A DNA stretch of 64,000 nucleotides from Bdellovibrionales bacterium. Lineage in GTDB: Bacteria; Bdellovibrionota; UBA1018; CAIMNF01. The stretch is from positions 51,130 to 115,129 of the forward strand of contig JBEIJY010000003.1 of assembly GCA_040380025.1 (NCBI GenBank), read 5' to 3'. The notes beneath the pieces are model-generated. The model had not been told where the DNA came from and made no database searches. It was given only the letters and a program-made list of their open reading frames with translations. The translations under genes were made by a program, and so were the position numbers. Below, piece by piece: positions 3,572 to 59,082 of the stretch (position 1 is the stretch's first letter; each line of letters begins with the position of its first letter).

Positions 3572-4324
3572 ATGAGGAAAATCTACATCCTTCCGAATCT
3601 GGTGACGACGGCGAATCTTGCGTGCGGGATTCTCTCGATGATCCATTCCATTCGCGGAGACTTCACCAAAGCGGCCTGGTTTGTCATCATCGGCGCGATC
3701 TGCGATTCGCTCGACGGCAGGATCGCCCGCTTCGCGCGCGCGACCTCGGCCTTCGGGGTCCAGTACGATTCCCTCTCGGATCTGACTTCTTTCGGAATCG
3801 CTCCGGCGATCCTGCTCTATGCCTACGGACTTCGCGGAATCGAGATCGGCGTGAGTGCGGTCGTGCTCTACGCGATCTGCGCCGCACTCCGGCTCGCCCG
3901 CTTCAATGTGAGCGCCGAGGAGAAAGATCCCTCCAAACTCCGAAAAATCAGAAAAGGCTATTTTCAGGGTCTTCCGTCGCCGGCATCGGCGGGGCTGATC
4001 GTGACCGCCATTCTGGTCCAGATTGAATTCTCTTTGCTTCCTCCCGGAATGATCGATACGGCGACCTTGTGCCTGGCCCTCGGGCTCGGCGTGCTCATGG
4101 TGAGCAATGTCCCGTTTCCCTCGTTCAAGGAGGTCAACTGGAGATCCAAAGGAAAAGCATGGATTTTGCTGATCCCCGTGATCTTCGTCTTGTGTGTGAT
4201 GCAGGCCCCCGAGCTGACGTTGTTCCTCTCGGGGTACTTGTATCTCACTCTCGGCCTCGGATGGGCCGCTTATCTCTGTTGGTTCAAGGATCGAAACAAA
4301 GGAGAAACGCTTGTGCCGGAATGA
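3572..4324 (+). CDS. pssA: CDP-diacylglycerol--serine O-phosphatidyltransferase (CDP-alcohol phosphatidyltransferase family)
   Basis: DGxxAR...G...D...D CDP-OH phosphotransferase motif (CDSLDGRIARFARATSAFGVQYDSLSD) in a multi-pass membrane protein. Confidence 0.75.
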   Translation: MRKIYILPNLVTTANLACGILSMIHSIRGDFTKAAWFVIIGAICDSLDGRIARFARATSAFGVQYDSLSDLTSFGIAPAILLYAYGLRGIEIGVSAVVLYAICAALRLARFNVSAEEKDPSKLRKIRKGYFQGLPSPASAGLIVTAILVQIEFSLLPPGMIDTATLCLALGLGVLMVSNVPFPSFKEVNWRSKGKAWILLIPVIFVLCVMQAPELTLFLSGYLYLTLGLGWAAYLCWFKDRNKGETLVPE

Positions 4325-6545
4325 AACGAAGGTCCGACCACTTTTGATTTTCATCTTCCTCCCGCTTCTCGTCCCCGGATGGGTTCGTGCGGGCGTGCTG
4401 GTCAATGCACCGCCACCGCACGATCAGCACCAAATGGGCGAAGCCAGCTACACGATCCATCAGGGCGGGAACAATACCGGGGTCCCCGCACAGACCGGAA
4501 CCTTCAATTCCACTCTGGGCTATCGATTCATCAACACGACCCTGAACACCGTCGAGAACCTGATCTGGCTCGATGTGAGCACGGACGACACCATCCAGGT
4601 GGATGCCGGAAAAAAACTCGTGGTGACCCTCTCGACCGGCACCAGTCCCGGTACCGAGATTCCGCTGACCGGTGCGGGACAGCCCGCGGCACCTAATGCT
4701 CCTCCTCCGGCATGCAACTTCGGGACGGTCACCTGTCAGGGGGGAGCGGGCGGAACGCTCTCTGCGATTTACCAGCGGGGCTCGGTTCTCAGGGTTTCGT
4801 TTTCGGTGCAGGCCCTCTGCGGAGCGGGCGCCACGGGAACGCTCTGCTCGGCAGGTGTCCCCGCGAACTTCGGGTCGGGGGCGACCCTCTCCCAGTCCAT
4901 CACGGTGAGCTTCAGTGCCGTGAATGATGGAACCACCGGGACTCTGGGCGGAACGAATTCGGGGACGTTCACTCTTGCCGTTTCTGACATCCCTCCGGTG
5001 ATTTCCTGCCCCGGAAGCGGAAACGTGGTCGATTATTACTTTCCGGGCGACGGCATGGTCTTTTTGGATCCGTCCCGGTACGGGCTGACCGCGGGTTCCT
5101 CGGGGAGTTATGCGGGCTTCGATGTGAAGTCGGTTGTGGTTCTCGCGAATCGTGGCTCTGTGAACGGGTTCACCGGCAACTTCGTGCCTGCGAACGAGGT
5201 GATCGCCTATGCAAAGGTGAACGGGGGGACCCAGGCGATTCCGGGCTTCGTGAACACCACCAATGGTACGGACAACAAGTACCAGGTGAAGCTCTACGCG
5301 CAGAACCTTGCCGGAATCGTTTCGCCGCTCGCCTGTGAGGTGACCCATCCGGATTTTCAGTTCCAGTCCCAGCCCATTCAGGGGGTCTTGAACGAGAGCA
5401 AGTGCTTCATCGCGACCGCCGCCTATCAGGACGGACGGGCCGCACCGGTGATGATGCTCCGGCGATTCCGGGACACGATCCTTGCCAAGCGGGAATGGGG
5501 CAGGCGCTTCATCGAAACCTACTACCGGCATTCCCCCGCTTGGGCGGAGTGGGCTTGGGACAAACCGCTGATTCGCTCTCTCGCTTTGCGCTTGCTTGCG
5601 CCGATCGAGCTTGCGGCCTGGCTCATTCTGAAGGCCTCGCAGGCCGAAGAGGTTTCCCCCCAGCCCTACATCGACAGCCTGAAGCAGGAGCTTGGGCTGT
5701 CCGGGCCCGCAGTGGCAGAAAGCTATATCGAGAGCGAGAAAGCCAAACTCGAAATCCCCGCTTCGAGCGGGGATCCAGAGGAATACATCAACCGGCTGAA
5801 GGGCGAGATCGGCCCCGGTGACTCGGGAGCCGGATACGCCGAGAGCGAACGGGTGAAATTACCCGAGCAGAAATCCGGACCGGGACCCATCGAGATGGTC
5901 TTGCGGGGCGAGGACCGTCTTCCCGAGCCCGAGAGGCCTGCGATCCATTCTGCTTTGGGGTTCATGGTCGGAGTCGCCCCCGGCATTGAGGTCACGAATA
6001 CCGGAGGAGCCTTGCAGTATAGCGACGTATACGGAGGAAAGTGGCAGCCTGAGCTTTTGGTCCATTACGAACGGCAACTCTTCCATTCCGAGACATTGGG
6101 GAGCTTCGGTCTGGGCGTCGACGGAGGGCTCTCGTTCGCGGACGGGTACGGAAGACTGACTTACCAGTTCAATGGCTCCACCGTGTCGCAGACGAAGTTC
6201 ACGTTTTATCAGTTTCCGGTGCTGTTCTCGGCCTATTACCGCTTCAATTTTTTGAAATTCATCAGACCCTACGCCGGCGGAAGCCTCGGTTCGATTTTTT
6301 ACATCGAAGATCGGAATGACGATGTCGACACGAAACGGGGTTACAATTTCGTGTACGCGGCTCATGCCGGCGTGAGCATTCTCCTCGATTTCTTCGATTC
6401 TCGCACCGCACGCGACGGGTACCTTTCTTCGGGCATCCAGCATTCCTACCTGTTCGCCGAATACCTGTACCTCGACAGCTTCAATCAAAGCGGCCTCGTT
6501 CTGAGCCGTTCCGGGATTTACACCGGATTTCTTTTCGAGATCTGA
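4311..6545 (+). CDS. Large secreted/surface protein: signal peptide, Gly/Thr/Ser-rich low-complexity region, CFIATAAY...RRFRD motif, C-terminal aromatic-rich beta-barrel-like domain
   Basis: N-terminal signal peptide (LLIFIFLPLLVPGWVRA). G/T/S/N-rich segment of about 350 aa. CFIATAAYQD...MMLRRFRDTIL...ETYYRHSPAWAEW motif. C-terminus has alternating aromatic/hydrophobic strands ending ...GFLFEI. Confidence 0.6.
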   Translation: MCRNETKVRPLLIFIFLPLLVPGWVRAGVLVNAPPPHDQHQMGEASYTIHQGGNNTGVPAQTGTFNSTLGYRFINTTLNTVENLIWLDVSTDDTIQVDAGKKLVVTLSTGTSPGTEIPLTGAGQPAAPNAPPPACNFGTVTCQGGAGGTLSAIYQRGSVLRVSFSVQALCGAGATGTLCSAGVPANFGSGATLSQSITVSFSAVNDGTTGTLGGTNSGTFTLAVSDIPPVISCPGSGNVVDYYFPGDGMVFLDPSRYGLTAGSSGSYAGFDVKSVVVLANRGSVNGFTGNFVPANEVIAYAKVNGGTQAIPGFVNTTNGTDNKYQVKLYAQNLAGIVSPLACEVTHPDFQFQSQPIQGVLNESKCFIATAAYQDGRAAPVMMLRRFRDTILAKREWGRRFIETYYRHSPAWAEWAWDKPLIRSLALRLLAPIELAAWLILKASQAEEVSPQPYIDSLKQELGLSGPAVAESYIESEKAKLEIPASSGDPEEYINRLKGEIGPGDSGAGYAESERVKLPEQKSGPGPIEMVLRGEDRLPEPERPAIHSALGFMVGVAPGIEVTNTGGALQYSDVYGGKWQPELLVHYERQLFHSETLGSFGLGVDGGLSFADGYGRLTYQFNGSTVSQTKFTFYQFPVLFSAYYRFNFLKFIRPYAGGSLGSIFYIEDRNDDVDTKRGYNFVYAAHAGVSILLDFFDSRTARDGYLSSGIQHSYLFAEYLYLDSFNQSGLVLSRSGIYTGFLFEI

Positions 6546-17920: not shown

Positions 17921-18550
17921 ATGAAGTTGCTGAGAGCCATCGTCCTGATTCTGCCTTTTTTTTGGGTGCCATCCTCTCGAGCATTCGAGGCGGGGATTTT
18001 AGGGGGAGTCAATTCCTTCGGGCCGGATTTGAAAGCCGGTCCGGCGTCCCCGGGGTTCACGTTCACGGCAGTACCCAGAACCGCATCGGGATTCGGGGCT
18101 TTTGTGAAGTTCCCCCTGGTTTCTGTGTTTGATCTTGAGTTGGATTTCATTCGTGCGGACAAAAAGATCGTGCAGACCGCAAGTTCGAGCTCTTTTTCGA
18201 ACGTCACGACGATCGAGATGTCCTCTTGGATGGTTCCGCTCCTGCTTCGAGTGAATGTGGTTCCCGGGGGCTTTTTAAGCCTTGCCGCCGGTGGGTACTA
18301 CGAGTGGGCGTCGGGTCGGGAGTACAAGGTCAACGGGGTCAGCACCGATTACGCCGGTTCCGGGTTCAATCACCGTGACATCGGGGTGTTGGGATCCCTC
18401 CGGCTTCGTTTTCCGGTCTTTTTCGGAGCCCATGCGATTCTGGATGGCCGCTATTTGATGGGGCTTCAGGAACAAGCAACGGACACGACCCAGTTCACGA
18501 TGAAGAGCCGGCACTTGCAGGCTTTTTTCGGGGTTTCGTTCGGTTCCTGA
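17921..18550 (+). CDS. Outer-membrane beta-barrel protein (OmpA/OmpW-like small barrel)
   Basis: Signal peptide MKLLRAIVLILPFFWVPSSRA. Alternating hydrophobic strands and a C-terminal aromatic (FGVSFGS). Confidence 0.6.
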   Translation: MKLLRAIVLILPFFWVPSSRAFEAGILGGVNSFGPDLKAGPASPGFTFTAVPRTASGFGAFVKFPLVSVFDLELDFIRADKKIVQTASSSSFSNVTTIEMSSWMVPLLLRVNVVPGGFLSLAAGGYYEWASGREYKVNGVSTDYAGSGFNHRDIGVLGSLRLRFPVFFGAHAILDGRYLMGLQEQATDTTQFTMKSRHLQAFFGVSFGS

Positions 18551-19010
18551 GAACGTCGCCGCAATCGGCACAAATCCCGGTGAACTCCACGAAGTGACGG
18601 ACTTCGCGGAACCCCATGTTCTTCACGGTCTCAAGGAGCTTCATCCAGTCCTTCCCGCCGCAGGCTTCGAGGACGGCCATCTTTCCGCATTTGCGGCAGA
18701 GCAAATGATGGTGATGGGTCTCGGCCGAGTCGAGTTCGAAGCGAACGGTTCCGTCGGCAAGGGGGGTTCGGACGACGATTTGGTTTTCTTCAAAAAAAAG
18801 AAGGGTCCGATAAACCGTGACCCGGTCGATGCGGCCGGTCTTCGAAGCCAGTTCGACAATCTGATCGACGGTGAGCGGCGAGTCCGCATCGCGGAGAATC
18901 TTCGTGATGCGCTCACGGCCCGGGGTCCATTTTCCGCCCCGTTTTTTCACCGCCTCACGAATGGCGCTGATCTTGGTGGGTTCTTCAGACTTGCACATCC
19001 GGGACTTCAT
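18495..19010 (-). CDS. fur: Fur-family metal-responsive transcriptional regulator (Fur/Zur/PerR)
   Basis: HHHHLLCRKCG and C-terminal CADCG metal-site motifs with a winged-helix N-terminus. Co-directional with, and downstream of, the paralog array and the GH-like gene. Confidence 0.75.
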   Translation of the reverse strand: MKSRMCKSEEPTKISAIREAVKKRGGKWTPGRERITKILRDADSPLTVDQIVELASKTGRIDRVTVYRTLLFFEENQIVVRTPLADGTVRFELDSAETHHHHLLCRKCGKMAVLEACGGKDWMKLLETVKNMGFREVRHFVEFTGICADCGDVLRNRTKPRKKPASAGSSS

Positions 19011-19011
19011 A

Positions 19012-20103
19012 TCACGGGCTGGGCAAATCGTCGATGAAGCGGGCAAGAAGCAGGGTCTCGAGCGCCACGATGTGGGTCACGGGCGTGAACTGCCCGGGGC
19101 TTTCGGGGTTCACCCAGCGCAGCGGGTACCAGCCGCATTTGTTCTTGGGTGATCGGATCACCAGCTCTGCTTGCCGGTCGACGAACGAGCGAAGCTCCTC
19201 GAGGCGCGGGTCGTTCTGTTCGGCGAAGGCGCGCACCAAAGGATAGAGCGACTTCATGAAGATTCCCTTGAAGGTCACGCCGTCGACGCCGCAGGGTTTT
19301 TTCCCGCCCTCGGACTCGCAGTGCCGCTCGGCGAACGCTCCGCGGTCGTTGAGGTAATAGTTGCGCGAGGCCTGGAAGAGCGACCAGGCGCGGTCGAGGT
19401 TTCCGAGCCGGGTGAAGACCTCGATGTAGAGTCCCTGGTTGTATGTCCAGTAGTCGCCGATTGCATTGCACTTCGCATCGAGTCCATCGTCGATGAGCCC
19501 CTCGGGGTTCCGGACGATGGCGGAGTTTTCGATCCAATGGACGATCTTGAGCGCGCGTTCGCGGTACACCGGATCGCCCGTCAGTTCGAAGAGCCGAAGG
19601 TTCAGGACGGCATAAATGCCGTTTGTGACGGAATTCTGGTACTTGTTCTCGGGCTTCCAAACGAGACTTCCGCCGCAGGTCGAAACCCAGGCGCGCTCGT
19701 GAATGTGTTTATAGAGCGCAAGGGAGCGCTTCAGGTATTTCTTTTTGGTCCGGCCCGAGGCCTCATAGGCATGAAGCCAGGTGAGCGCCCACCAGCCCTC
19801 GTCATCGAAGATGCCGTTCACGTAGTTCAAGATCGGCCGGAAGCTCAAAAAAAAGTAAGTCTGATCAAGACTCCCGATCAGCTCCCGGTCGAACCGCAAA
19901 AGGCCGTCGATGTTGTGTGATTGGGTCCACCAAGTCGAGCGAGGCCAATCCCGAAGCAAAAACCGTCGCGATTCCTGATGGGTCTTACCGGCCTCTTCGA
20001 TCGCGGCATCAAGCTCTGCTCTTTCGATCCCTCGTGCGGGGGGAGCTCCCGCAATGCTCATGAAGACTGCGACAAGAAGGGTCGAAAGAGTGAGACGGTT
20101 CAT
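19012..20103 (-). CDS. Secreted six-hairpin (alpha/alpha)6 glycoside-hydrolase-like protein (GH76-like)
   Basis: Signal peptide and W-rich motifs (DDEGWWALTW, NSVTNGIY) reminiscent of GH76-type hydrolases. Family assignment is uncertain. Confidence 0.45.
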   Translation of the reverse strand: MNRLTLSTLLVAVFMSIAGAPPARGIERAELDAAIEEAGKTHQESRRFLLRDWPRSTWWTQSHNIDGLLRFDRELIGSLDQTYFFLSFRPILNYVNGIFDDEGWWALTWLHAYEASGRTKKKYLKRSLALYKHIHERAWVSTCGGSLVWKPENKYQNSVTNGIYAVLNLRLFELTGDPVYRERALKIVHWIENSAIVRNPEGLIDDGLDAKCNAIGDYWTYNQGLYIEVFTRLGNLDRAWSLFQASRNYYLNDRGAFAERHCESEGGKKPCGVDGVTFKGIFMKSLYPLVRAFAEQNDPRLEELRSFVDRQAELVIRSPKNKCGWYPLRWVNPESPGQFTPVTHIVALETLLLARFIDDLPSP

Positions 20104-20137
20104 CCAGTAGCTCCCGGTTCCACGATCGAAATTTCGT

Positions 20138-20689
20138 TCAATACTTCGGTCCTAGGTCGAGCGGCCGGGTTTCCTGCCGGAGCTCTTCGAGCTCCCGCTT
20201 GCGAAGATCCTGTTCCTGCGGGCTCGCCTCGATGGCGGCTTGCGCGCGTTCCGTGATCTCGGCGGTGATCTCCGCACGGCGTACCTCGCACTCGTGCAGG
20301 GACCGGAACTCCCGGTTCTGATCGTAGGTGTAGTTCGGAATCGCGAACTCCGCAACCGGCTTCGGAAGCGCCCCGACCACCAGGACCGCATATTGCGAGC
20401 CGTAGTTCTGATGGAGCGCAGGTCCGAGATCGACCTTGATGCGTTCCACTCGGTCTTCCTCGCGACGGGCGCGATCGCACCGGATCGCCGCATGCGCTTG
20501 CTCGCACACATTCTTCAGGTCTGACAGGTTCGATTCGGTTTTCGAGATGCGGATCAGAACATACGATCCGCCGGTCTTCAGGTACAGGCGGTCGAACCAG
20601 CCCTCGCGGAACTCGCAGGCTCCTTGCGCCTGTGCGGCCGAAGCCGAAATGAAAAGTGCTGCCAACAATGCCGATCCGTACTTGCTCAT
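20138..20689 (-). CDS. Small secreted four-cysteine paralog A (type-2 subfamily)
   Basis: Signal peptide. Conserved C-x-F, LKNVCEQ...C, ECE and AQxAI motifs. RBS GGAGGAGAGG. Own AT-rich promoter element. Confidence 0.7.
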   Translation of the reverse strand: MSKYGSALLAALFISASAAQAQGACEFREGWFDRLYLKTGGSYVLIRISKTESNLSDLKNVCEQAHAAIRCDRARREEDRVERIKVDLGPALHQNYGSQYAVLVVGALPKPVAEFAIPNYTYDQNREFRSLHECEVRRAEITAEITERAQAAIEASPQEQDLRKRELEELRQETRPLDLGPKY

Positions 20690-20722
20690 GGGTTCCTCTC
20701 CTCCTTCAGAAAAGAAAGGAAC

Positions 20723-20788
20723 ATCTTGCAGAGGCTGAAAACAAGTGTCAATTATAATTTATATAATATTAGAATAAAAACTAATGGG
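20723..20788 (-). promoter_or_regulatory. Conserved AT-rich element plus TTGACA (-35) and N17 then CAAGAT promoter of paralog A
   Basis: 43-nt element tgtcaattataatttatataatattagaataaaaactaatggg is repeated nearly identically at 21877-21920 and 23036-23078. TTGACA sits at its gene-proximal end. Confidence 0.6.
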
Positions 20789-20796
20789 AGTTGCGG

Positions 20797-21252
20797 TCAG
20801 CGCAGACGCGTGCCCCATTTGCGGTCTTCGATTTGTCTTTGTTCTTCGGGACGCAGAGCGATCGCATCTTGGGCCCGTCCCGTGGCACGGATGGAAAACC
20901 ACGAGCGGTGCGTTTCGCACTCCTCGAAGGAATCGAACATGCGATTGAAACCGACCGAAGGCACGGGACCCGCGAATTGGAGGATCCATTCCGGAAGTTC
21001 CCCGACATAAAAGAGCGTGAACTCCGAGCCGGGATTCAAAACGCAATGACTGGCGCGCAGGGTTTCGTCACAGAGGTTCTTCAGGTCGCCGATGTTCTGC
21101 GGGGTTCTCGAAACCCGGATCGGAAGCGTACTGCCGTTCCCCGCGTTCAGGCGGACCGAGTAAAACGGACCCTGCGAAAAAAAACAAGCCTCCTCTGCAT
21201 TCGCAGAAAAGGCTTGCATCAATATCATTGAAACGAAAGCAAAACGAAGCAT
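20797..21252 (-). CDS. Small secreted four-cysteine paralog B (type-2 subfamily)
   Basis: Start at MLRFAF with an AAGGGGGG RBS. Shares the PEWIxQF and EECE motifs with paralog D. Co-transcribed downstream of paralog C. Confidence 0.65.
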   Translation of the reverse strand: MLRFAFVSMILMQAFSANAEEACFFSQGPFYSVRLNAGNGSTLPIRVSRTPQNIGDLKNLCDETLRASHCVLNPGSEFTLFYVGELPEWILQFAGPVPSVGFNRMFDSFEECETHRSWFSIRATGRAQDAIALRPEEQRQIEDRKWGTRLR

Positions 21253-21293
21253 GTTATCCCCCCTTTTCTTCAGATCAAGCGACACCGGAAGAA

Positions 21294-21821
21294 TCAGATT
21301 TTTCCGGGAGTCAGGCGGCGCCCCTGTTCGCGGAGCTGTTGATCGTCGCGAGCATTGGTCGAGCGAGCCTCGATCGCCTTCTGGGCGTTCTCGACCGCTT
21401 GAATGGCAACGTCGGCCCGGTGGCTTTCGCAGGCTTGCACCGAGGCGTAAGACTTACCCGCATAGCTCGGCGCGAATTGCGCGATCCACTGGTTCCGCGG
21501 ATGGAATTCATATTCGAGGGTGGCGAAGTTCTTTCCGAGATCGACATAGGTACTCGGGCCGAGATCGGAATCAATGCGCACGCTCTCGCCGGTGTAGCGG
21601 ACATGCTCGATGCACAGGACCGCCTTGAAGGTCTCATCGCAGACGGTCTTGAGTGTGTTCAGGTTCTCGTCGGTTTGTGCCACGCGAATCCCGACGTACT
21701 GGGAATCGCTCGACTGAATGTAAGAGTGGCCGAAAACCCCCGTCGAAAAATAGCAGTTCGCCTCTGCCGAAGCTCCTGCCATCATCAATGCCACTGCCAA
21801 TCCTGAAACTTGTTTGAACAT
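21294..21821 (-). CDS. Small secreted four-cysteine paralog C (type-1 subfamily)
   Basis: Start at MFKQVSGLAV with a GAGGAGAGG RBS. CYFSTG, CDETFKAVLC and ACESHR motifs. Closest to paralog E. Confidence 0.7.
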   Translation of the reverse strand: MFKQVSGLAVALMMAGASAEANCYFSTGVFGHSYIQSSDSQYVGIRVAQTDENLNTLKTVCDETFKAVLCIEHVRYTGESVRIDSDLGPSTYVDLGKNFATLEYEFHPRNQWIAQFAPSYAGKSYASVQACESHRADVAIQAVENAQKAIEARSTNARDDQQLREQGRRLTPGKI

Positions 21822-21852
21822 GATACCTCTCCTCATTTTTGAAACGACGCAG

Positions 21853-21920
21853 AATGCTTGCACGTCATGACTGGCGCGTCAATTATTATTTATAGTAAAT
21901 AAGAATAAAAACTAATGGCG
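21853..21920 (-). promoter_or_regulatory. Conserved AT-rich element plus TTGACG (-35) promoter of the C-B unit
   Basis: Second copy of the 43-nt AT-rich element, immediately upstream of paralog C. Confidence 0.55.
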
Positions 21921-21960
21921 ATCGGTCGCACGGGCTTGCGCGGGCCTTCGGCGGGGCTTA

Positions 21961-22425
21961 TTACCAGGGGCGCGCTTGATACACCGATTCCCGGATGCGT
22001 TTTTGCTCTTCGGGATTGGCCGCGATGGCGGCATGGGCGCGTTCGGTCGCAAGAATGGCGAATTCGGAGCGCGCGATCTCGCACTCTTTCTGGGAGTTCA
22101 GAAGCTGGTTCCAGCCATAGCCGAAGATCGGGTTGGTATATTGCGCGATCCATTCCGGAACAGCGTGGATGAACAACAGGGTGACTCCTGATTCTTTTGT
22201 GGGAAGGCACTCCGCGGCCTCGAGGCTCGTATTGCACACCTCTCTCAGGATCGAGCGGTTGTTATTGCTTCGGGTGACCTGGATCACGAGGAACTTCCCG
22301 TGTCCCGAGTTCAAATGAAGCGAATCGAATTGTCCGCTCGAAAAAGTGCAGCTGTCTTTGGCGTGGGCGGCCGAGGCGGTCATCGCCAACAAAATCGTAA
22401 GAACGGTTCTAGTCATTGCCAACAT
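21961..22425 (-). CDS. Small secreted four-cysteine paralog D (type-2 subfamily)
   Basis: Signal peptide, PEWIAQY and KECEIAR motifs. GGAGG RBS. Co-transcribed downstream of paralog E. Confidence 0.65.
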   Translation of the reverse strand: MLAMTRTVLTILLAMTASAAHAKDSCTFSSGQFDSLHLNSGHGKFLVIQVTRSNNNRSILREVCNTSLEAAECLPTKESGVTLLFIHAVPEWIAQYTNPIFGYGWNQLLNSQKECEIARSEFAILATERAHAAIAANPEEQKRIRESVYQARPW

Positions 22426-22455
22426 GATTTTCATCCTCCGAAAGATTCCCCGATT

Positions 22456-22980
22456 CTACCATTTGCCCGGAGTATAGAGATCGCGCCGGTCGGGTTGATT
22501 CTCGAGAGGGGACCCGCGCGCGGTGGATTCATTGTAGCGGATCGCCTTTTGTGCGATTTCGACGGTCCCGATCGCGATTCGATCCCGCTGAGCCAAGCAT
22601 GCTTCGTAAGACGCGTATTTCTTGCCGGACCAGTCATTCGGCACGAATTGCTGGATCCACTCGGGCAGATTGCTCACGCCAAGGGTCACTTCCACCAGTC
22701 CGAAGTTGGTGTATTCCTTGATGCCGAATTCCGAGGGATGACTCACGACCTGATCATAAGTACGGGTGGTGCCCTCGCACCGGACGGCCTTGTAGGTCTC
22801 GTTGCAAACGGTTTGCAAAAGGTTCTTGTTTTCGACGGTCGGTGTGATCCGGATCAGATCGTACTGGTCTTCGCTCGCGTGGATGTACTCGCCGAGGTAA
22901 CCCCCGGAGAAGTAACACTGCGCCCCGGCCGAAGAACCTGCCGCCATCATCAATGCGATTGCCGAAAATTTCTTGAACAT
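22456..22980 (-). CDS. Small secreted four-cysteine paralog E (type-1 subfamily)
   Basis: Start at MFKKFSAIAL with a GGAGAGG RBS. CYFSGG, CNETYKAVRC and ACLAQR motifs. Ends ...TPGKW (paralog C ends TPGKI). Confidence 0.7.
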   Translation of the reverse strand: MFKKFSAIALMMAAGSSAGAQCYFSGGYLGEYIHASEDQYDLIRITPTVENKNLLQTVCNETYKAVRCEGTTRTYDQVVSHPSEFGIKEYTNFGLVEVTLGVSNLPEWIQQFVPNDWSGKKYASYEACLAQRDRIAIGTVEIAQKAIRYNESTARGSPLENQPDRRDLYTPGKW

Positions 22981-23012
22981 GAACTGCCTCTCCTCTTCGT
23001 TTCGAAGTCGGC

Positions 23013-23078
23013 GCATCTTCGCACGGGCAAGGTGATGTGTCAATTATTTTTTATATGAAGTTAGAATAAAAACTGATG
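23013..23078 (-). promoter_or_regulatory. Conserved AT-rich element plus TTGACA (-35) and N17 then GAAGAT promoter of the E-D unit
   Basis: Third copy of the 43-nt element. Confidence 0.6.
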
Positions 23079-23089
23079 AGGGGGTCGCA

Positions 23090-23575
23090 TCAGTTCGGAC
23101 GGGTGCGGGCGGCGCGCGCCTGGCGGATCGCCTCGCGCTGGGAGGCCATCACATCGATGATCTCGAGCGCTTCGTAACGAAGGTCGTTCTCGAAAATGAA
23201 GCGGTAGAAGTTCTCGATGTCCGGATGGTGGCGGAAGTTCTTGAGCGATCCGGAGTTGGTGTCGGTTCCCGCAGTCGCGGCCGCCATGGCAAGGCCTGCG
23301 GCCGAGATTCCGGGAGCGGCGGCGCCTTCTTCTTCTTCGTCCTCATCCGAGGACGCGGTGCCGGTCACGAGTTCGGCTTTCAGCTCGATGGTGTCGGATT
23401 TCTTGTCTTTGCCCGCGCCTTTTTTCTCGATCGCGATTTTCACTTTGGGTTCGGGCTTCTTGGTCGACTTGGCCACCGGCTTTGCGGAAGGCTTCGGAGC
23501 GGCCTTGGCGGGTTTCGCGGGAACGGGTTTTTTCGCGTTTGTTTTTTTAGCGGGTTCTTTTTTCGATTTTGCCAT
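23090..23575 (-). CDS. Lysine/Ala/Pro-rich histone-H1-like small protein with acidic linker and conserved C-terminal domain
   Basis: MAKSKKEPAKKTNAKKPVPAKPAKAAPKPSAKPVAK... tail, then an SDEDEEEE run, then NFRHHPDIENFYRFIFENDLRYEALEII. Start trimmed to MAKSKK. Confidence 0.5.
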   Translation of the reverse strand: MAKSKKEPAKKTNAKKPVPAKPAKAAPKPSAKPVAKSTKKPEPKVKIAIEKKGAGKDKKSDTIELKAELVTGTASSDEDEEEEGAAAPGISAAGLAMAAATAGTDTNSGSLKNFRHHPDIENFYRFIFENDLRYEALEIIDVMASQREAIRQARAARTRPN

Positions 23576-23603
23576 GGCACTGCCTCCTGGGTTTCGGGTC
23601 AAT

Positions 23604-24989
23604 TTACAGTTTCGCCTCGGATTTGTCCAAAATTCCGTAGCGGTGAAGTTTGTTGTACAGGGTCTTGATCGTGATCCCGAGCGAATGCGCCGCACGGGTC
23701 TTGTTGCCTTCGAAGTGGCCGAGACAACGCAAAATATGGATTTTTTCGAGTTCCTCGAGGGGCATTTCGACCGGGGGCGGGCCGGTCAGCTCTCTCGACG
23801 CACTCTGGGCCGGACCCCGGATCGATCCAGGCAGATCCGCCGGTTCGATCCGTCCGTCTCCCGAAAGAATCCGGATCCGCTCGATCGCGTTCTGAAGCTC
23901 CCGGATGTTTCCGGGCCAGGGGTGGTTCTTCAGGAGCTCGAGCGCCTCGCTCGAAATCCGGGCGAGCATACCCGAAGAAAAATGCTCGATCAGAAGGGGA
24001 ATGTCGTCTTTCCGGTCGCGCAATGCCGGGGATTTGAGCGTGATGGTGTTCAGACGGTAAAAGAGATCCTCACGGAACCGGCTGTTCTGAATCTCGGTCT
24101 CGAGGTCGCGATTGGTGGCGCTCACCACCCGCACATCGACGCGGATCGGCTCCTTGCCGCCTACGCGATAGAATTCGCCTTCTTGCAAAAATCGCAGGAT
24201 CTTCGACTGGAGGGCGAGGGCCATTTCGCCGATTTCGTCCAAAAACAGGGTTCCGCGATGGGCCTGCTCGACCAGTCCTTTTTTGGTGCCTGTGGCGCCG
24301 GTGAACGAGCCTTTTTCGTGTCCGAACAGCTCGCTTTCGAGCAGGGATTCGGTGATCGCGCCGCAATTGATTGCCACAAAGGGAAGCTCGCTTCTCGGGC
24401 TCTGTGCGTGGATCCGTCGCGCGATCAGCTCTTTGCCGGTTCCGCTCTCGCCCAAAATGAGCACGGATGCCGAGGTCGGAGCCACGCGGTCGATCAGGTT
24501 CAGAATCTTGCCGAGTTTTTCGCTCCGGCCGATCAGGGGAACGGTCTGGGCTGCTGCGCGGGAGGGTTTCCTGGGCTCGCGGACCTTGCCACCCAGGGTG
24601 AGACCGGGAAGCGCGGGAGCAAGAAGGCGTCCGAGTTCGGTTGCCGCAAGCTCAATCAAAATCGTCTCGCCCGTGAGCCATTTGCCTTCCGGACGGTATG
24701 CGAACAGCACTCCGGTGATCCGGTTCTCAAAAATGCAAGGGACGATGAAAATCCGGTTCAGCGGCTCGATCACCGACTGGCGCAGACGCACGGACTGATC
24801 GAGGGTGCGGGGGTCGAACGGGGGGAAGCCCGGGGTCGCCGCGAATTGATCCTTGGGGAGCTCGGTTGCCGCATTTGCCCGTGCGATCGCGAACTTCGCG
24901 AACGAGAGTTCGCGATTCAGGAAGTCCAGGCTTCCGTCGAACTCGTCATTCAGTTTTCGGATCAGGCTCAGCGCCGACAAGGGTTCCAT
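23604..24989 (-). CDS. Sigma-54-dependent transcriptional activator with an N-terminal GAF-like sensor domain
   Basis: AAA+ sigma-54 activation domain (GESGTGKE Walker A, GAFTGA-like ESELFGHEKGSFTGA), C-terminal Fis-type HTH, and no receiver Asp domain. Start trimmed to MEPLSALS. Confidence 0.8.
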   Translation of the reverse strand: MEPLSALSLIRKLNDEFDGSLDFLNRELSFAKFAIARANAATELPKDQFAATPGFPPFDPRTLDQSVRLRQSVIEPLNRIFIVPCIFENRITGVLFAYRPEGKWLTGETILIELAATELGRLLAPALPGLTLGGKVREPRKPSRAAAQTVPLIGRSEKLGKILNLIDRVAPTSASVLILGESGTGKELIARRIHAQSPRSELPFVAINCGAITESLLESELFGHEKGSFTGATGTKKGLVEQAHRGTLFLDEIGEMALALQSKILRFLQEGEFYRVGGKEPIRVDVRVVSATNRDLETEIQNSRFREDLFYRLNTITLKSPALRDRKDDIPLLIEHFSSGMLARISSEALELLKNHPWPGNIRELQNAIERIRILSGDGRIEPADLPGSIRGPAQSASRELTGPPPVEMPLEELEKIHILRCLGHFEGNKTRAAHSLGITIKTLYNKLHRYGILDKSEAKL

Positions 24990-25029
24990 CGCGACGGTGG
25001 ATTCTAGCAGTACTGTGTAAAAATTGCAA

Positions 25030-25455
25030 TTAAAAACTGATATAAAAAGTAAGATTTTCAGTAAGGGGGCGGACCACGGTGTACAGCGCAAGCACTGCCA
25101 GCCCGGCCCAGGCAAGGCCTCGCGCCCGGTTCCACGAGGGAATCGGAAGTCGCCCGGTCGCCGCAAGCGCCGAGACGACGGGCATTCCCGAAAACAAGGG
25201 GAGCGAGAGCAGGTTCTGCCGGAACGCCTCTTGCCACTCTCCGAAAAACAAATGCACAAAGGCATGGGTCATGCCGCAAAACGAGCACTTCATTCCGGTC
25301 CACATGCGCAGGGGGCAAACCGGCGGAAGCGCATCCAGGATCGAAAACGCCTGCTCCCGCCCGAGCAGATGCAGGCTCGCTCCCGAAGCAACAAACAGCA
25401 GCAGCAGGAGTCTCCCGGACCAAACAAGCAGAGAAGACTTCGAAGAAGAACTCAA
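25030..25455 (-). CDS. DUF2752-like small membrane protein
   Basis: CPLRMWTGMKCSFCGMTHAF, i.e. a CPxxxxxGxxCxxCGxT(H/R)A motif, plus TM segments. The 3' end runs into an AT-rich tract. Confidence 0.5.
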   Translation of the reverse strand: MSSSSKSSLLVWSGRLLLLLFVASGASLHLLGREQAFSILDALPPVCPLRMWTGMKCSFCGMTHAFVHLFFGEWQEAFRQNLLSLPLFSGMPVVSALAATGRLPIPSWNRARGLAWAGLAVLALYTVVRPLTENLTFYISF

Positions 25456-59002: not shown

Positions 59003-59082
59003 GGATATCAAAAGCGATAAAATTTTGACTAAAACCAACTTTTATTGTTGCGTATTGGTGTGTTATTTATTAAACTGACCAT
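59003..59082 (+). promoter_or_regulatory. 80-bp AT-rich intergenic region (putative promoter) upstream of the XRE regulator
   Basis: ...aaaattttgactaaaaccaacttttattgttgcgtattggtgtgttatttattaaactgacc... Strongly AT-rich in a GC-rich genome and contains a TTGACT hexamer. Confidence 0.4.

Follow-up and report, generated by a model that had tools for sequence, protein, structure and literature searches.

A tandem array of five paralogous, predicted exported four-cysteine proteins and its conserved dyad promoter element in a Bdellovibrionales bacterium

In this work, we characterized a tandem array of five small genes, A to E, on the minus strand of a 64,000-nt stretch of DNA from a Bdellovibrionales bacterium (contig JBEIJY010000003.1); this whole stretch is referred to below as the window. 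An earlier reading of the letters alone (the sequence-only reading) had described the five genes as paralogs, each encoding a signal peptide and four conserved cysteines. All five open reading frames (ORFs) are present where that reading placed them and align over their full length (Table 1). A purine-rich ribosome-binding site precedes every start codon, and the third-position GC of the array frames (0.63-0.76) is like that of the neighbouring genes; the long antisense ORFs lie at 0.50-0.56. In the full-length alignment of A to E, four cysteines are invariant (C25, C62, C71, and C134 in A numbering), as are R138, within the motif C-E-x-x-R, and an A-x-x-A-I motif in the next helix, and the mature part of each protein holds exactly four cysteines. 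The five proteins score between 1e-47 and 1e-65 with a hidden Markov model (HMM) of the family, and the same model found no sixth copy among all window ORFs of at least 70 aa. As judged from their sequences, A to E are true paralogs, diverged copies of one predicted exported four-cysteine family.

Table 1. Array genes, putative promoter elements and adjoining genes, with positions in the window.
Feature	Position	Strand	Remarks
Gene E	22456..22980	minus	long-form ("type 1"), 174 aa; signal peptide, 4 Cys, C-terminal PGKW; family HMM 1.5e-61; ortholog P0004, 61% identity
Gene D	21961..22425	minus	short-form ("type 2"), 154 aa; no promoter of its own; ~21-aa insertion and K/R-aromatic tail at the C-terminus both absent; start 30 nt after E; GGAGG 9 nt before ATG
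Gene C	21294..21821	minus	long-form ("type 1"), 175 aa; C-terminal PGKI; ortholog P0005, 69% identity
Gene B	20797..21252	minus	short-form ("type 2"), 151 aa; start 41 nt after C; lacks an own promoter element
Gene A	20138..20689	minus	183 aa; ~21-aa insertion, LGPKY C-terminus, own promoter element; leads the putative A-GH76-fur operon
Putative promoter/operator element upstream of E	23037..23078	minus	dyad core 23050-23070 (TTTATTC-N7-ATATAAA); -35 TTGACA 23038-23043; putative -10 GAAGAT 23015-23020
Putative promoter/operator element upstream of C	21876..21917	minus	dyad core 21889-21909; -35 TTGACG 21877-21882; putative -10 AAGCAT 21854-21859
Putative promoter/operator element upstream of A	20745..20786	minus	dyad core 20758-20778; -35 TTGACA 20746-20751; putative -10 CAAGAT 20723-20728
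GH76-family exported protein	19012..20103	minus	Pfam PF03663, 1e-33; ortholog P0021, 92% identical, in JGI sample 3300059473
Fur-family regulator	18495..19010	minus	171 aa; PF01475, 5e-20; NCBIfam Fur, PerR and Zur all below cut-off; start confirmed by exact look-up
Lys-rich protein gene	23090-23575	minus	161 aa; between sigma-54 activator and array; no Pfam, NCBIfam, PHROG or PADLOC match

Signal peptides of the Sec type (a basic n-region, an h-region spanning at least some 9 residues, and -3/-1 positions occupied by small residues) were assessed heuristically. In each of A to E, an N-terminal basic residue and a hydrophobic core are followed by an A-x-A-like site located 0-4 residues ahead of the first cysteine. 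The 19 family sequences checked in the same manner likewise have the features of Sec export and signal peptidase I cleavage, with a maximum 9-residue hydropathy of 1.7-3.2 and, in 17 of the 18 signal-bearing sequences, a basic residue at positions 1-8. Heuristic check and alignment agree that the signal peptide and the four cysteines are kept throughout these 19 sequences. From the n-region, the hydrophobic stretch and the A-x-A-like site we infer that the array products are exported to the periplasm or beyond, where two disulfides would stabilise them. Anchoring as lipoproteins was considered and rejected, as A to E all lack a lipobox ([LVI][ASTVI][GAS]C with Cys at +1). The homolog at locus L006 (3825-4352) has a lipobox-like LAAC at the end of its signal peptide, the sole case in the family, which may be a lipoprotein variant or a chance match. 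Most full-length members also end in a conserved motif, [G/P]-[K/R]-[Y/W/F/H/I/L]-COOH (GPKY, PGKW, PGKI, GLKH, GPKF, and others). In the window the motif is encoded at 20138-20155 (A), 21294-21311 (C), and 22456-22473 (E); it has been lost in B, in D, and in a fusion protein, P0008, from another genome. The [G/P]-[K/R] motif could be a recognition tag, e.g., one read by a PDZ-type protease or used in sorting.

The sequence-only reading could place the proteins in no known domain, and profile searches of Pfam, NCBIfam, PHROGs, PADLOC, and PDB bear it out. Membership of a curated family was taken to mean that the curated cut-off is reached, or that a consistent sub-threshold match is seen across members. 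Searched against Pfam, NCBIfam, PHROGs, and PADLOC, the five paralogs gave no match better than an E value of 0.096, and when 17 family members were scanned singly, no Pfam family was matched by more than one of them. A profile search of all PDB sequences returned a spurious repeat match only, no structural relatives were found among solved structures (PDB only), and tblastn against plasmid and phage collections gave nothing. A literature search on palindromic promoters and secreted proteins of Bdellovibrio likewise yielded nothing relevant. The family is thus assignable to no known domain.

AlphaFold2 models were obtained for C, from an alignment of 7 sequences (predicted local distance difference test, pLDDT, 72.8; predicted template modelling score, pTM, 0.63), and for D, from an alignment of 17 sequences (pLDDT 84.0; pTM 0.76). 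The predicted topology consists of three N-terminal strands, a helix carrying the second cysteine, a further small sheet, a long helix from the fourth cysteine, and a last helix; an insertion of ~21 aa in the long forms is predicted to form an extra beta-hairpin. The mature domain is alpha/beta, of roughly 125-150 aa with four invariant cysteines, and its long terminal helix starts at C-E-x-x-R. The ancestral form adds a charged tail ending in [G/P]-[K/R]-aromatic/aliphatic-COOH. Since conservation is confined to the cysteines, one arginine, and a mostly conserved glutamate, with no catalytic-type set of residues, the proteins are more likely to be binding or scaffold modules than enzymes.

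Members of the family are scarce elsewhere. When 1.84 billion cluster representatives were searched exhaustively with the family HMM, 12 clusters were returned at E <= 1e-3, 5 of which are window genes or their close orthologs. GTDB species representatives contributed three loci, all titled "MAG: Bdellovibrionales bacterium," and a scan of JGI metagenomes contributed two additional loci. Word-indexed homolog searches recovered little besides two JGI orthologs and the genes of the window itself, and patterns of the type-1 proteins had no match in GTDB genomes or JGI metagenomes. The two orthologs, P0004 (of E) and P0005 (of C), lie on short contigs of JGI sample 3300059473, where the gene after P0004 follows 32 nt downstream. 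One outside member, P0008 (locus L004, 1826-2638; 270 aa), is a natural fusion of two tandem family domains with four cysteines each, and it lacks both an upstream AT-rich dyad and the C-terminal tail. We conclude that this is an orphan family so far restricted to uncultured Bdellovibrionales. Outside members are stand-alone single genes, with one copy within +/-10 kb at every other locus, which makes the five-gene array a lineage-specific expansion. The neighbourhood comparison that the sequence-only reading had proposed for its type-1/type-2 pairing speaks against a pairing required throughout the family, as every member found in other genomes is such a stand-alone gene.

Another feature of the array is a repeated AT-rich element. 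The sequence-only reading had assigned a 43-nt copy to each unit; three copies do stand before A, C, and E, but they measure 42 nt. The copies are 86% identical, and over 46 nt they retain 78-83% identity, vs. 57-65% for the adjoining 5' untranslated regions and coding DNA. On the coding strand their common form is CAT(T/C)AGTTTTTATTC-N7-nTATAAA-N6-TTGAC(A/G). The core pattern has 3 matches in the window vs. 0.00 expected from shuffles, and nowhere in the 64 kb is the AT content higher than in the three elements. A putative -10 hexamer (nAnnAT; CAAGAT, AAGCAT, or GAAGAT, with TG before it) lies 17 nt past the TTGACA box, and the ATG is found ~55 nt downstream of the -35. The element would thus be organised like a sigma-70 promoter whose -35 matches the consensus and whose -10 is weak. 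A further AT-rich, promoter-like site at 25001-25066 (minus strand; TTGCAA-17-TAGAAT with TG) lies upstream of the start of the sigma-54 activator (MEPLSAL, 24989); ATCAGTTTTTA occurs both there and at the array element's 5' edge.

The dyad within this element recurs beyond the window. In four other genomes, TTTATAC-N7-GTATAAA is found in the same register directly upstream of the family gene, as AATATTTATAC-N7-GTATAAATATTATTGAC at L001, TTTTTTATAC-N7-GTATAAAAATAATTGAC at L002/L003, ATTAATTTTTATAC-N7-GTATAAATAATAATTGACA at L005, and ATTAATTTTTATAC-N7-CTATAAAAAATAATTGACG at L008. At each of these loci it occurs once, solely at the family gene, and no copy was seen elsewhere in the ~150 kb examined. 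The pattern matches both strands at the outside loci, indicating a true dyad. Since the proteins concerned are just 25-35% identical to those of the window and the flanking genes are unrelated, the element is under selection together with the gene. A conserved dyad and promoter element is therefore tied to the family across genomes. The dyad is probably either an operator, centred near -52, that a dimeric DNA-binding protein recognises or a strongly constrained UP-like element.

The array had been read as a duplicated promoter-plus-two-gene cassette, and this history is matched by what we found: E and C are sisters, as are D and B, the non-coding element is repeated with them, and the three elements are spaced at the similar intervals of 1131 and 1161 nt. 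In a neighbour-joining tree, the window genes are monophyletic, with (C,P0005) and (E,P0004) on one side and ((B,D),A) on the other. The proposed split into two subfamilies holds in this tree as (C,E) vs. ((B,D),A), but A is more than the solo type-2 copy it was taken for, as it carries the insertion, a GPKY tail, and a promoter of its own. E and C each have a separate ortholog in the relative from JGI sample 3300059473 (61 and 69% protein identity, respectively), so the C/E duplication is older than the split from that relative; between the paralogs of the array, coding DNA is 57-65% identical. A keeps the ~21-aa insertion, its own promoter, and an L-G-P-K-Y tail that is the same as in P0009 and L005, and of the array genes it gives the best BLAST match (35%, 1e-22) to members from outside. 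B and D are derived short forms in which the insertion, the promoter, and the [G/P]-[K/R]-aromatic C-terminus have all been lost; of the five copies, A most resembles the ancestral form. The likely course is that an A-like single gene with a dyad promoter was the first to duplicate, that one resulting lineage became the long type 1 (C/E), and that another shed insertion, tail, and promoter to become the short type 2, always located 30-41 nt behind a type-1 gene. The cassette of promoter, long gene, and short gene would then have duplicated to give E-D and C-B.

The tight succession of long and short genes bears on how their products might act. Gaps of 8-21 nt had been claimed for C-B and E-D; with that reading's own start codons they are 41 and 30 nt, and values of 8 and 21 nt need alternative starts with poorer ribosome-binding-site spacing. 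The short forms may, tentatively, cooperate with their upstream long partners. Such pairing is proposed because the genes are tightly spaced, because the short forms have shed tail and promoter, and because of the natural fusion P0008, which would indicate that a pair of such domains can function within a single unit. Heteromeric pairing is not a family-wide requirement. Taken as a whole, the locus is best explained, and in our judgement probably so, as a lineage-specific, five-fold expansion of an orphan family of exported four-cysteine proteins, with co-regulation through the dyad promoter, a cassette history, and tentative long/short pairing. Each unit would be driven by a sigma-70-type promoter whose -35 abuts the AT-rich 21-bp dyad, and the dyad, whether as an operator or as an UP-like element, would switch on all copies together.

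Several observations weigh against this explanation. The window dyads are partly degenerate (left TTTATTC, right nTATAAA), the element is degenerate at L007, and it is missing from L004 and L006. AT-rich tracts also stand beside TTGAC/TTGCA boxes at other promoters of the window (TTGAC or TTGCAA, e.g., at 25001-25066 and 59010-59051). Given that ~150 kb was covered, unrelated genes might use the element too, or it might chiefly be an UP element. With regard to pairing, all non-window members are singletons, so it is unnecessary for basic function, and the two domains of P0008 are sisters (28% identity) in the neighbour-joining tree rather than a type-1/type-2 pair. The tree itself, built by neighbour joining from 19 short sequences and carrying no support values (no bootstrap), is a weak point. 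The AT-rich tracts elsewhere, the loci devoid of the element, and the singletons would be accommodated by a different and clearly less probable account, in which the element is a generic strong promoter (UP element plus -35) of highly expressed genes, the five proteins are redundant or diversified monomers or homodimers, and the adjacency of long and short forms is a relic of duplication; the placement of the dyad at about -42 to -62, the position of an UP element, would fit as well. What such a promoter leaves unexplained is a palindromic dyad kept in the same register in four genomes, solely upstream of family genes, despite the low protein identity and unrelated flanks described above. Redundant monomers, in turn, sit poorly with short forms B and D that each lack both promoter and C-terminal tail.

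Beyond the lineage-specific expansion that we favour, a more far-reaching version can be entertained, although we think it rather unlikely. In this version, the proteins would represent a new fold of exported two-disulfide proteins in a predatory Bdellovibrionales clade, a dedicated dimeric regulator would act through TTTATAC-N7-GTATAAA, and long/short heterodimers would work at the interface with the prey or at the envelope of the predator.

Comparison of syntenic loci indicates that the family tends to diverge more quickly than the genes around it, which is common among exported proteins. Between L006 and L007, the family gene (57% identity vs. 69-93% for its neighbours) is the most diverged of the syntenic block, and between L007 and L009 it stands at 74% vs. 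77-95%. Between L005 and L008, in contrast, it is average rather than fast (67% vs. 60-84%). Between the window and its JGI relative, E and C are 61 and 69% identical vs. 92% for the GH76 protein, on contigs that are not proven to be one genome. No 90%-cluster partner was found for six other neighbouring proteins, so GH76 is the sole calibration of that divergence. These values give no more than a weak hint of diversifying selection on the family.

As to the genomic neighbourhood, the sequence-only reading had reported a glycoside hydrolase-like secreted protein, a Fur-family regulator, and a GAF/sigma-54 activator next to the array. The first two were confirmed, the hydrolase as a GH76-family protein, but the activator showed no detectable GAF domain, and a gene for a 161-aa protein lies between it and the array. 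The N-terminus of this protein (23090-23575) is rich in Lys/Ala/Pro and histone-H1/AlgP-like; an acidic stretch is also present, and the C-terminus is helical. Its gene is directly upstream of the first promoter element. A is separated from GH76 by 34 nt, and the two are probably co-transcribed. The GH76 stop codon (TGA) and the ATG of the Fur-family gene have 1 nt between them (19010-19014), which suggests translational coupling within a putative A-GH76-fur operon. No intrinsic terminator was found between the units, and the array probably comprises three nested transcription units, E-D, C-B, and A-GH76-fur.

The regulator next to A raises the question of a metal-responsive module, in which metal-binding or metal-sparing exported four-cysteine proteins are controlled by the co-transcribed Fur-family protein and the AT-rich element is its box. 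Four invariant cysteines, the presence of the regulator gene in the same putative operon as A, and the AT-richness of Fur-type boxes could be read in this way. However, within 18400-25300 the 19-bp Fur consensus GATAATGATAATCATTATC is matched at 13 of 19 positions at best, at a site in the ribosome-binding region of D and outside the three elements, and the dyad has a 7-7-7 arrangement instead of the 7-1-7 of a Fur-type inverted repeat. Moreover, no Fur-family gene is near the other dyad-bearing family members, the proteins have no conserved His/Asp/Glu cluster, and cysteines of Sec-exported proteins normally form disulfides. We consider a metal-responsive module improbable. Promoters of the sigma-54 type were likewise sought and rejected: TGGCAC-N5-TTGCW has 19 matches in the window at up to 2 mismatches vs. 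19.4 expected, with none in the three upstream intergenic regions.

Small exported disulfide proteins are often glycosidase inhibitors, e.g., Ivy and PliC/MliC, and the location of A 34 nt ahead of a probably co-transcribed GH76 gene invites the idea that the family members are inhibitors, chaperones, or carbohydrate-binding partners of this alpha-1,6-mannanase-like protein, or else toxin/immunity-type pairs. We regard this as the most improbable of the accounts weighed here, since no GH76 gene is near any other family member and the family has no structural similarity to solved inhibitor folds. With regard to toxin and immunity, types 1 and 2 are homologous to each other, both have signal peptides, and neither gave a PADLOC match. 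More generally, none of the window neighbours, including the Fur-family, GH76, activator, and Lys-rich genes, was found near any other family member, and orthologous family loci elsewhere have other conserved neighbours. GH76 is lineage-specific context and not a conserved partner of the family. Because the neighbours are unconserved and there is neither a Fur box nor a -24/-12 promoter, the context gives no reliable functional lead.

Three other observations were made in the window. A perfect 8-1-8 palindrome, TTGCAAACCGTTTGCAA, lies at 22802-22818, within the coding sequence of E at its conserved L-Q-T-V-C-N-E motif; by chance alone, 64 kb should hold about one palindrome of this kind. A 744-aa protein encoded at 4311-6545 (plus strand) combines a CFI-box-CTERM-type domain with an outer-membrane beta-barrel of the Bd0486/MXAN_2562 family; it is the sole taxonomic pointer inside the window, towards Bdellovibrionota/Myxococcota, and is consistent with a Bdellovibrionota origin. 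Rfam and tRNA scans of the window gave nothing.

If the lineage-specific expansion under dyad control is correct, the array would add a new exported family, possibly with a new fold, to predatory bacteria whose secreted factors are mostly uncharacterised. In uncultured Bdellovibrionales, the compact conserved dyad could serve as bait for its regulator and for the regulon under that regulator. The locus would also offer a clean natural case in which a single gene and its promoter gave rise to a cassette array whose partners shed promoter, insertion, and tail. The impact is limited by the extreme rarity of the family (12 clusters among about 15 billion proteins), which is represented by metagenome-derived sequences only.

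Among known systems, the array can be compared first with regulated promoters and regulons. Promoters with an UP element (rrnB P1) or a class I activator site (CRP class I sites) resemble it in having an AT-rich block at ~-40 to -62 upstream of TTGACA and a weak -10; unlike a generic A/T tract, the array block has dyad symmetry and is inherited with one gene family across genomes. Fur/Zur/PerR regulons share a Fur-family regulator in the same putative operon and AT-rich upstream DNA, but the array has no 7-1-7 or 19-bp box, and the regulator is missing from all other dyad loci. The inhibitors Ivy, PliC/MliC, and PliG are alike in size (~100-150 aa mature), Sec export, disulfides, lack of catalytic residues, and the association of one copy with a glycoside hydrolase; they have no sequence or structural similarity to the family, and the link to GH76 is not conserved. 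A further parallel is with lineage-specific tandem arrays of small Sec-exported disulfide proteins, e.g., expanded secreted effector- or adhesin-like families, which have in common with this locus tandem paralogs, signal peptides, a cysteine framework, fast divergence, and a narrow taxonomic range. In contrast to these, the present family has no homology or fold match to described families and brings with it a conserved dyad of its own, the putative operator/promoter. Small exported paralogs with a cysteine framework, arranged in tandem, are a familiar pattern, and what sets this array apart is a family without a detectable relative and the element that is inherited along with it.

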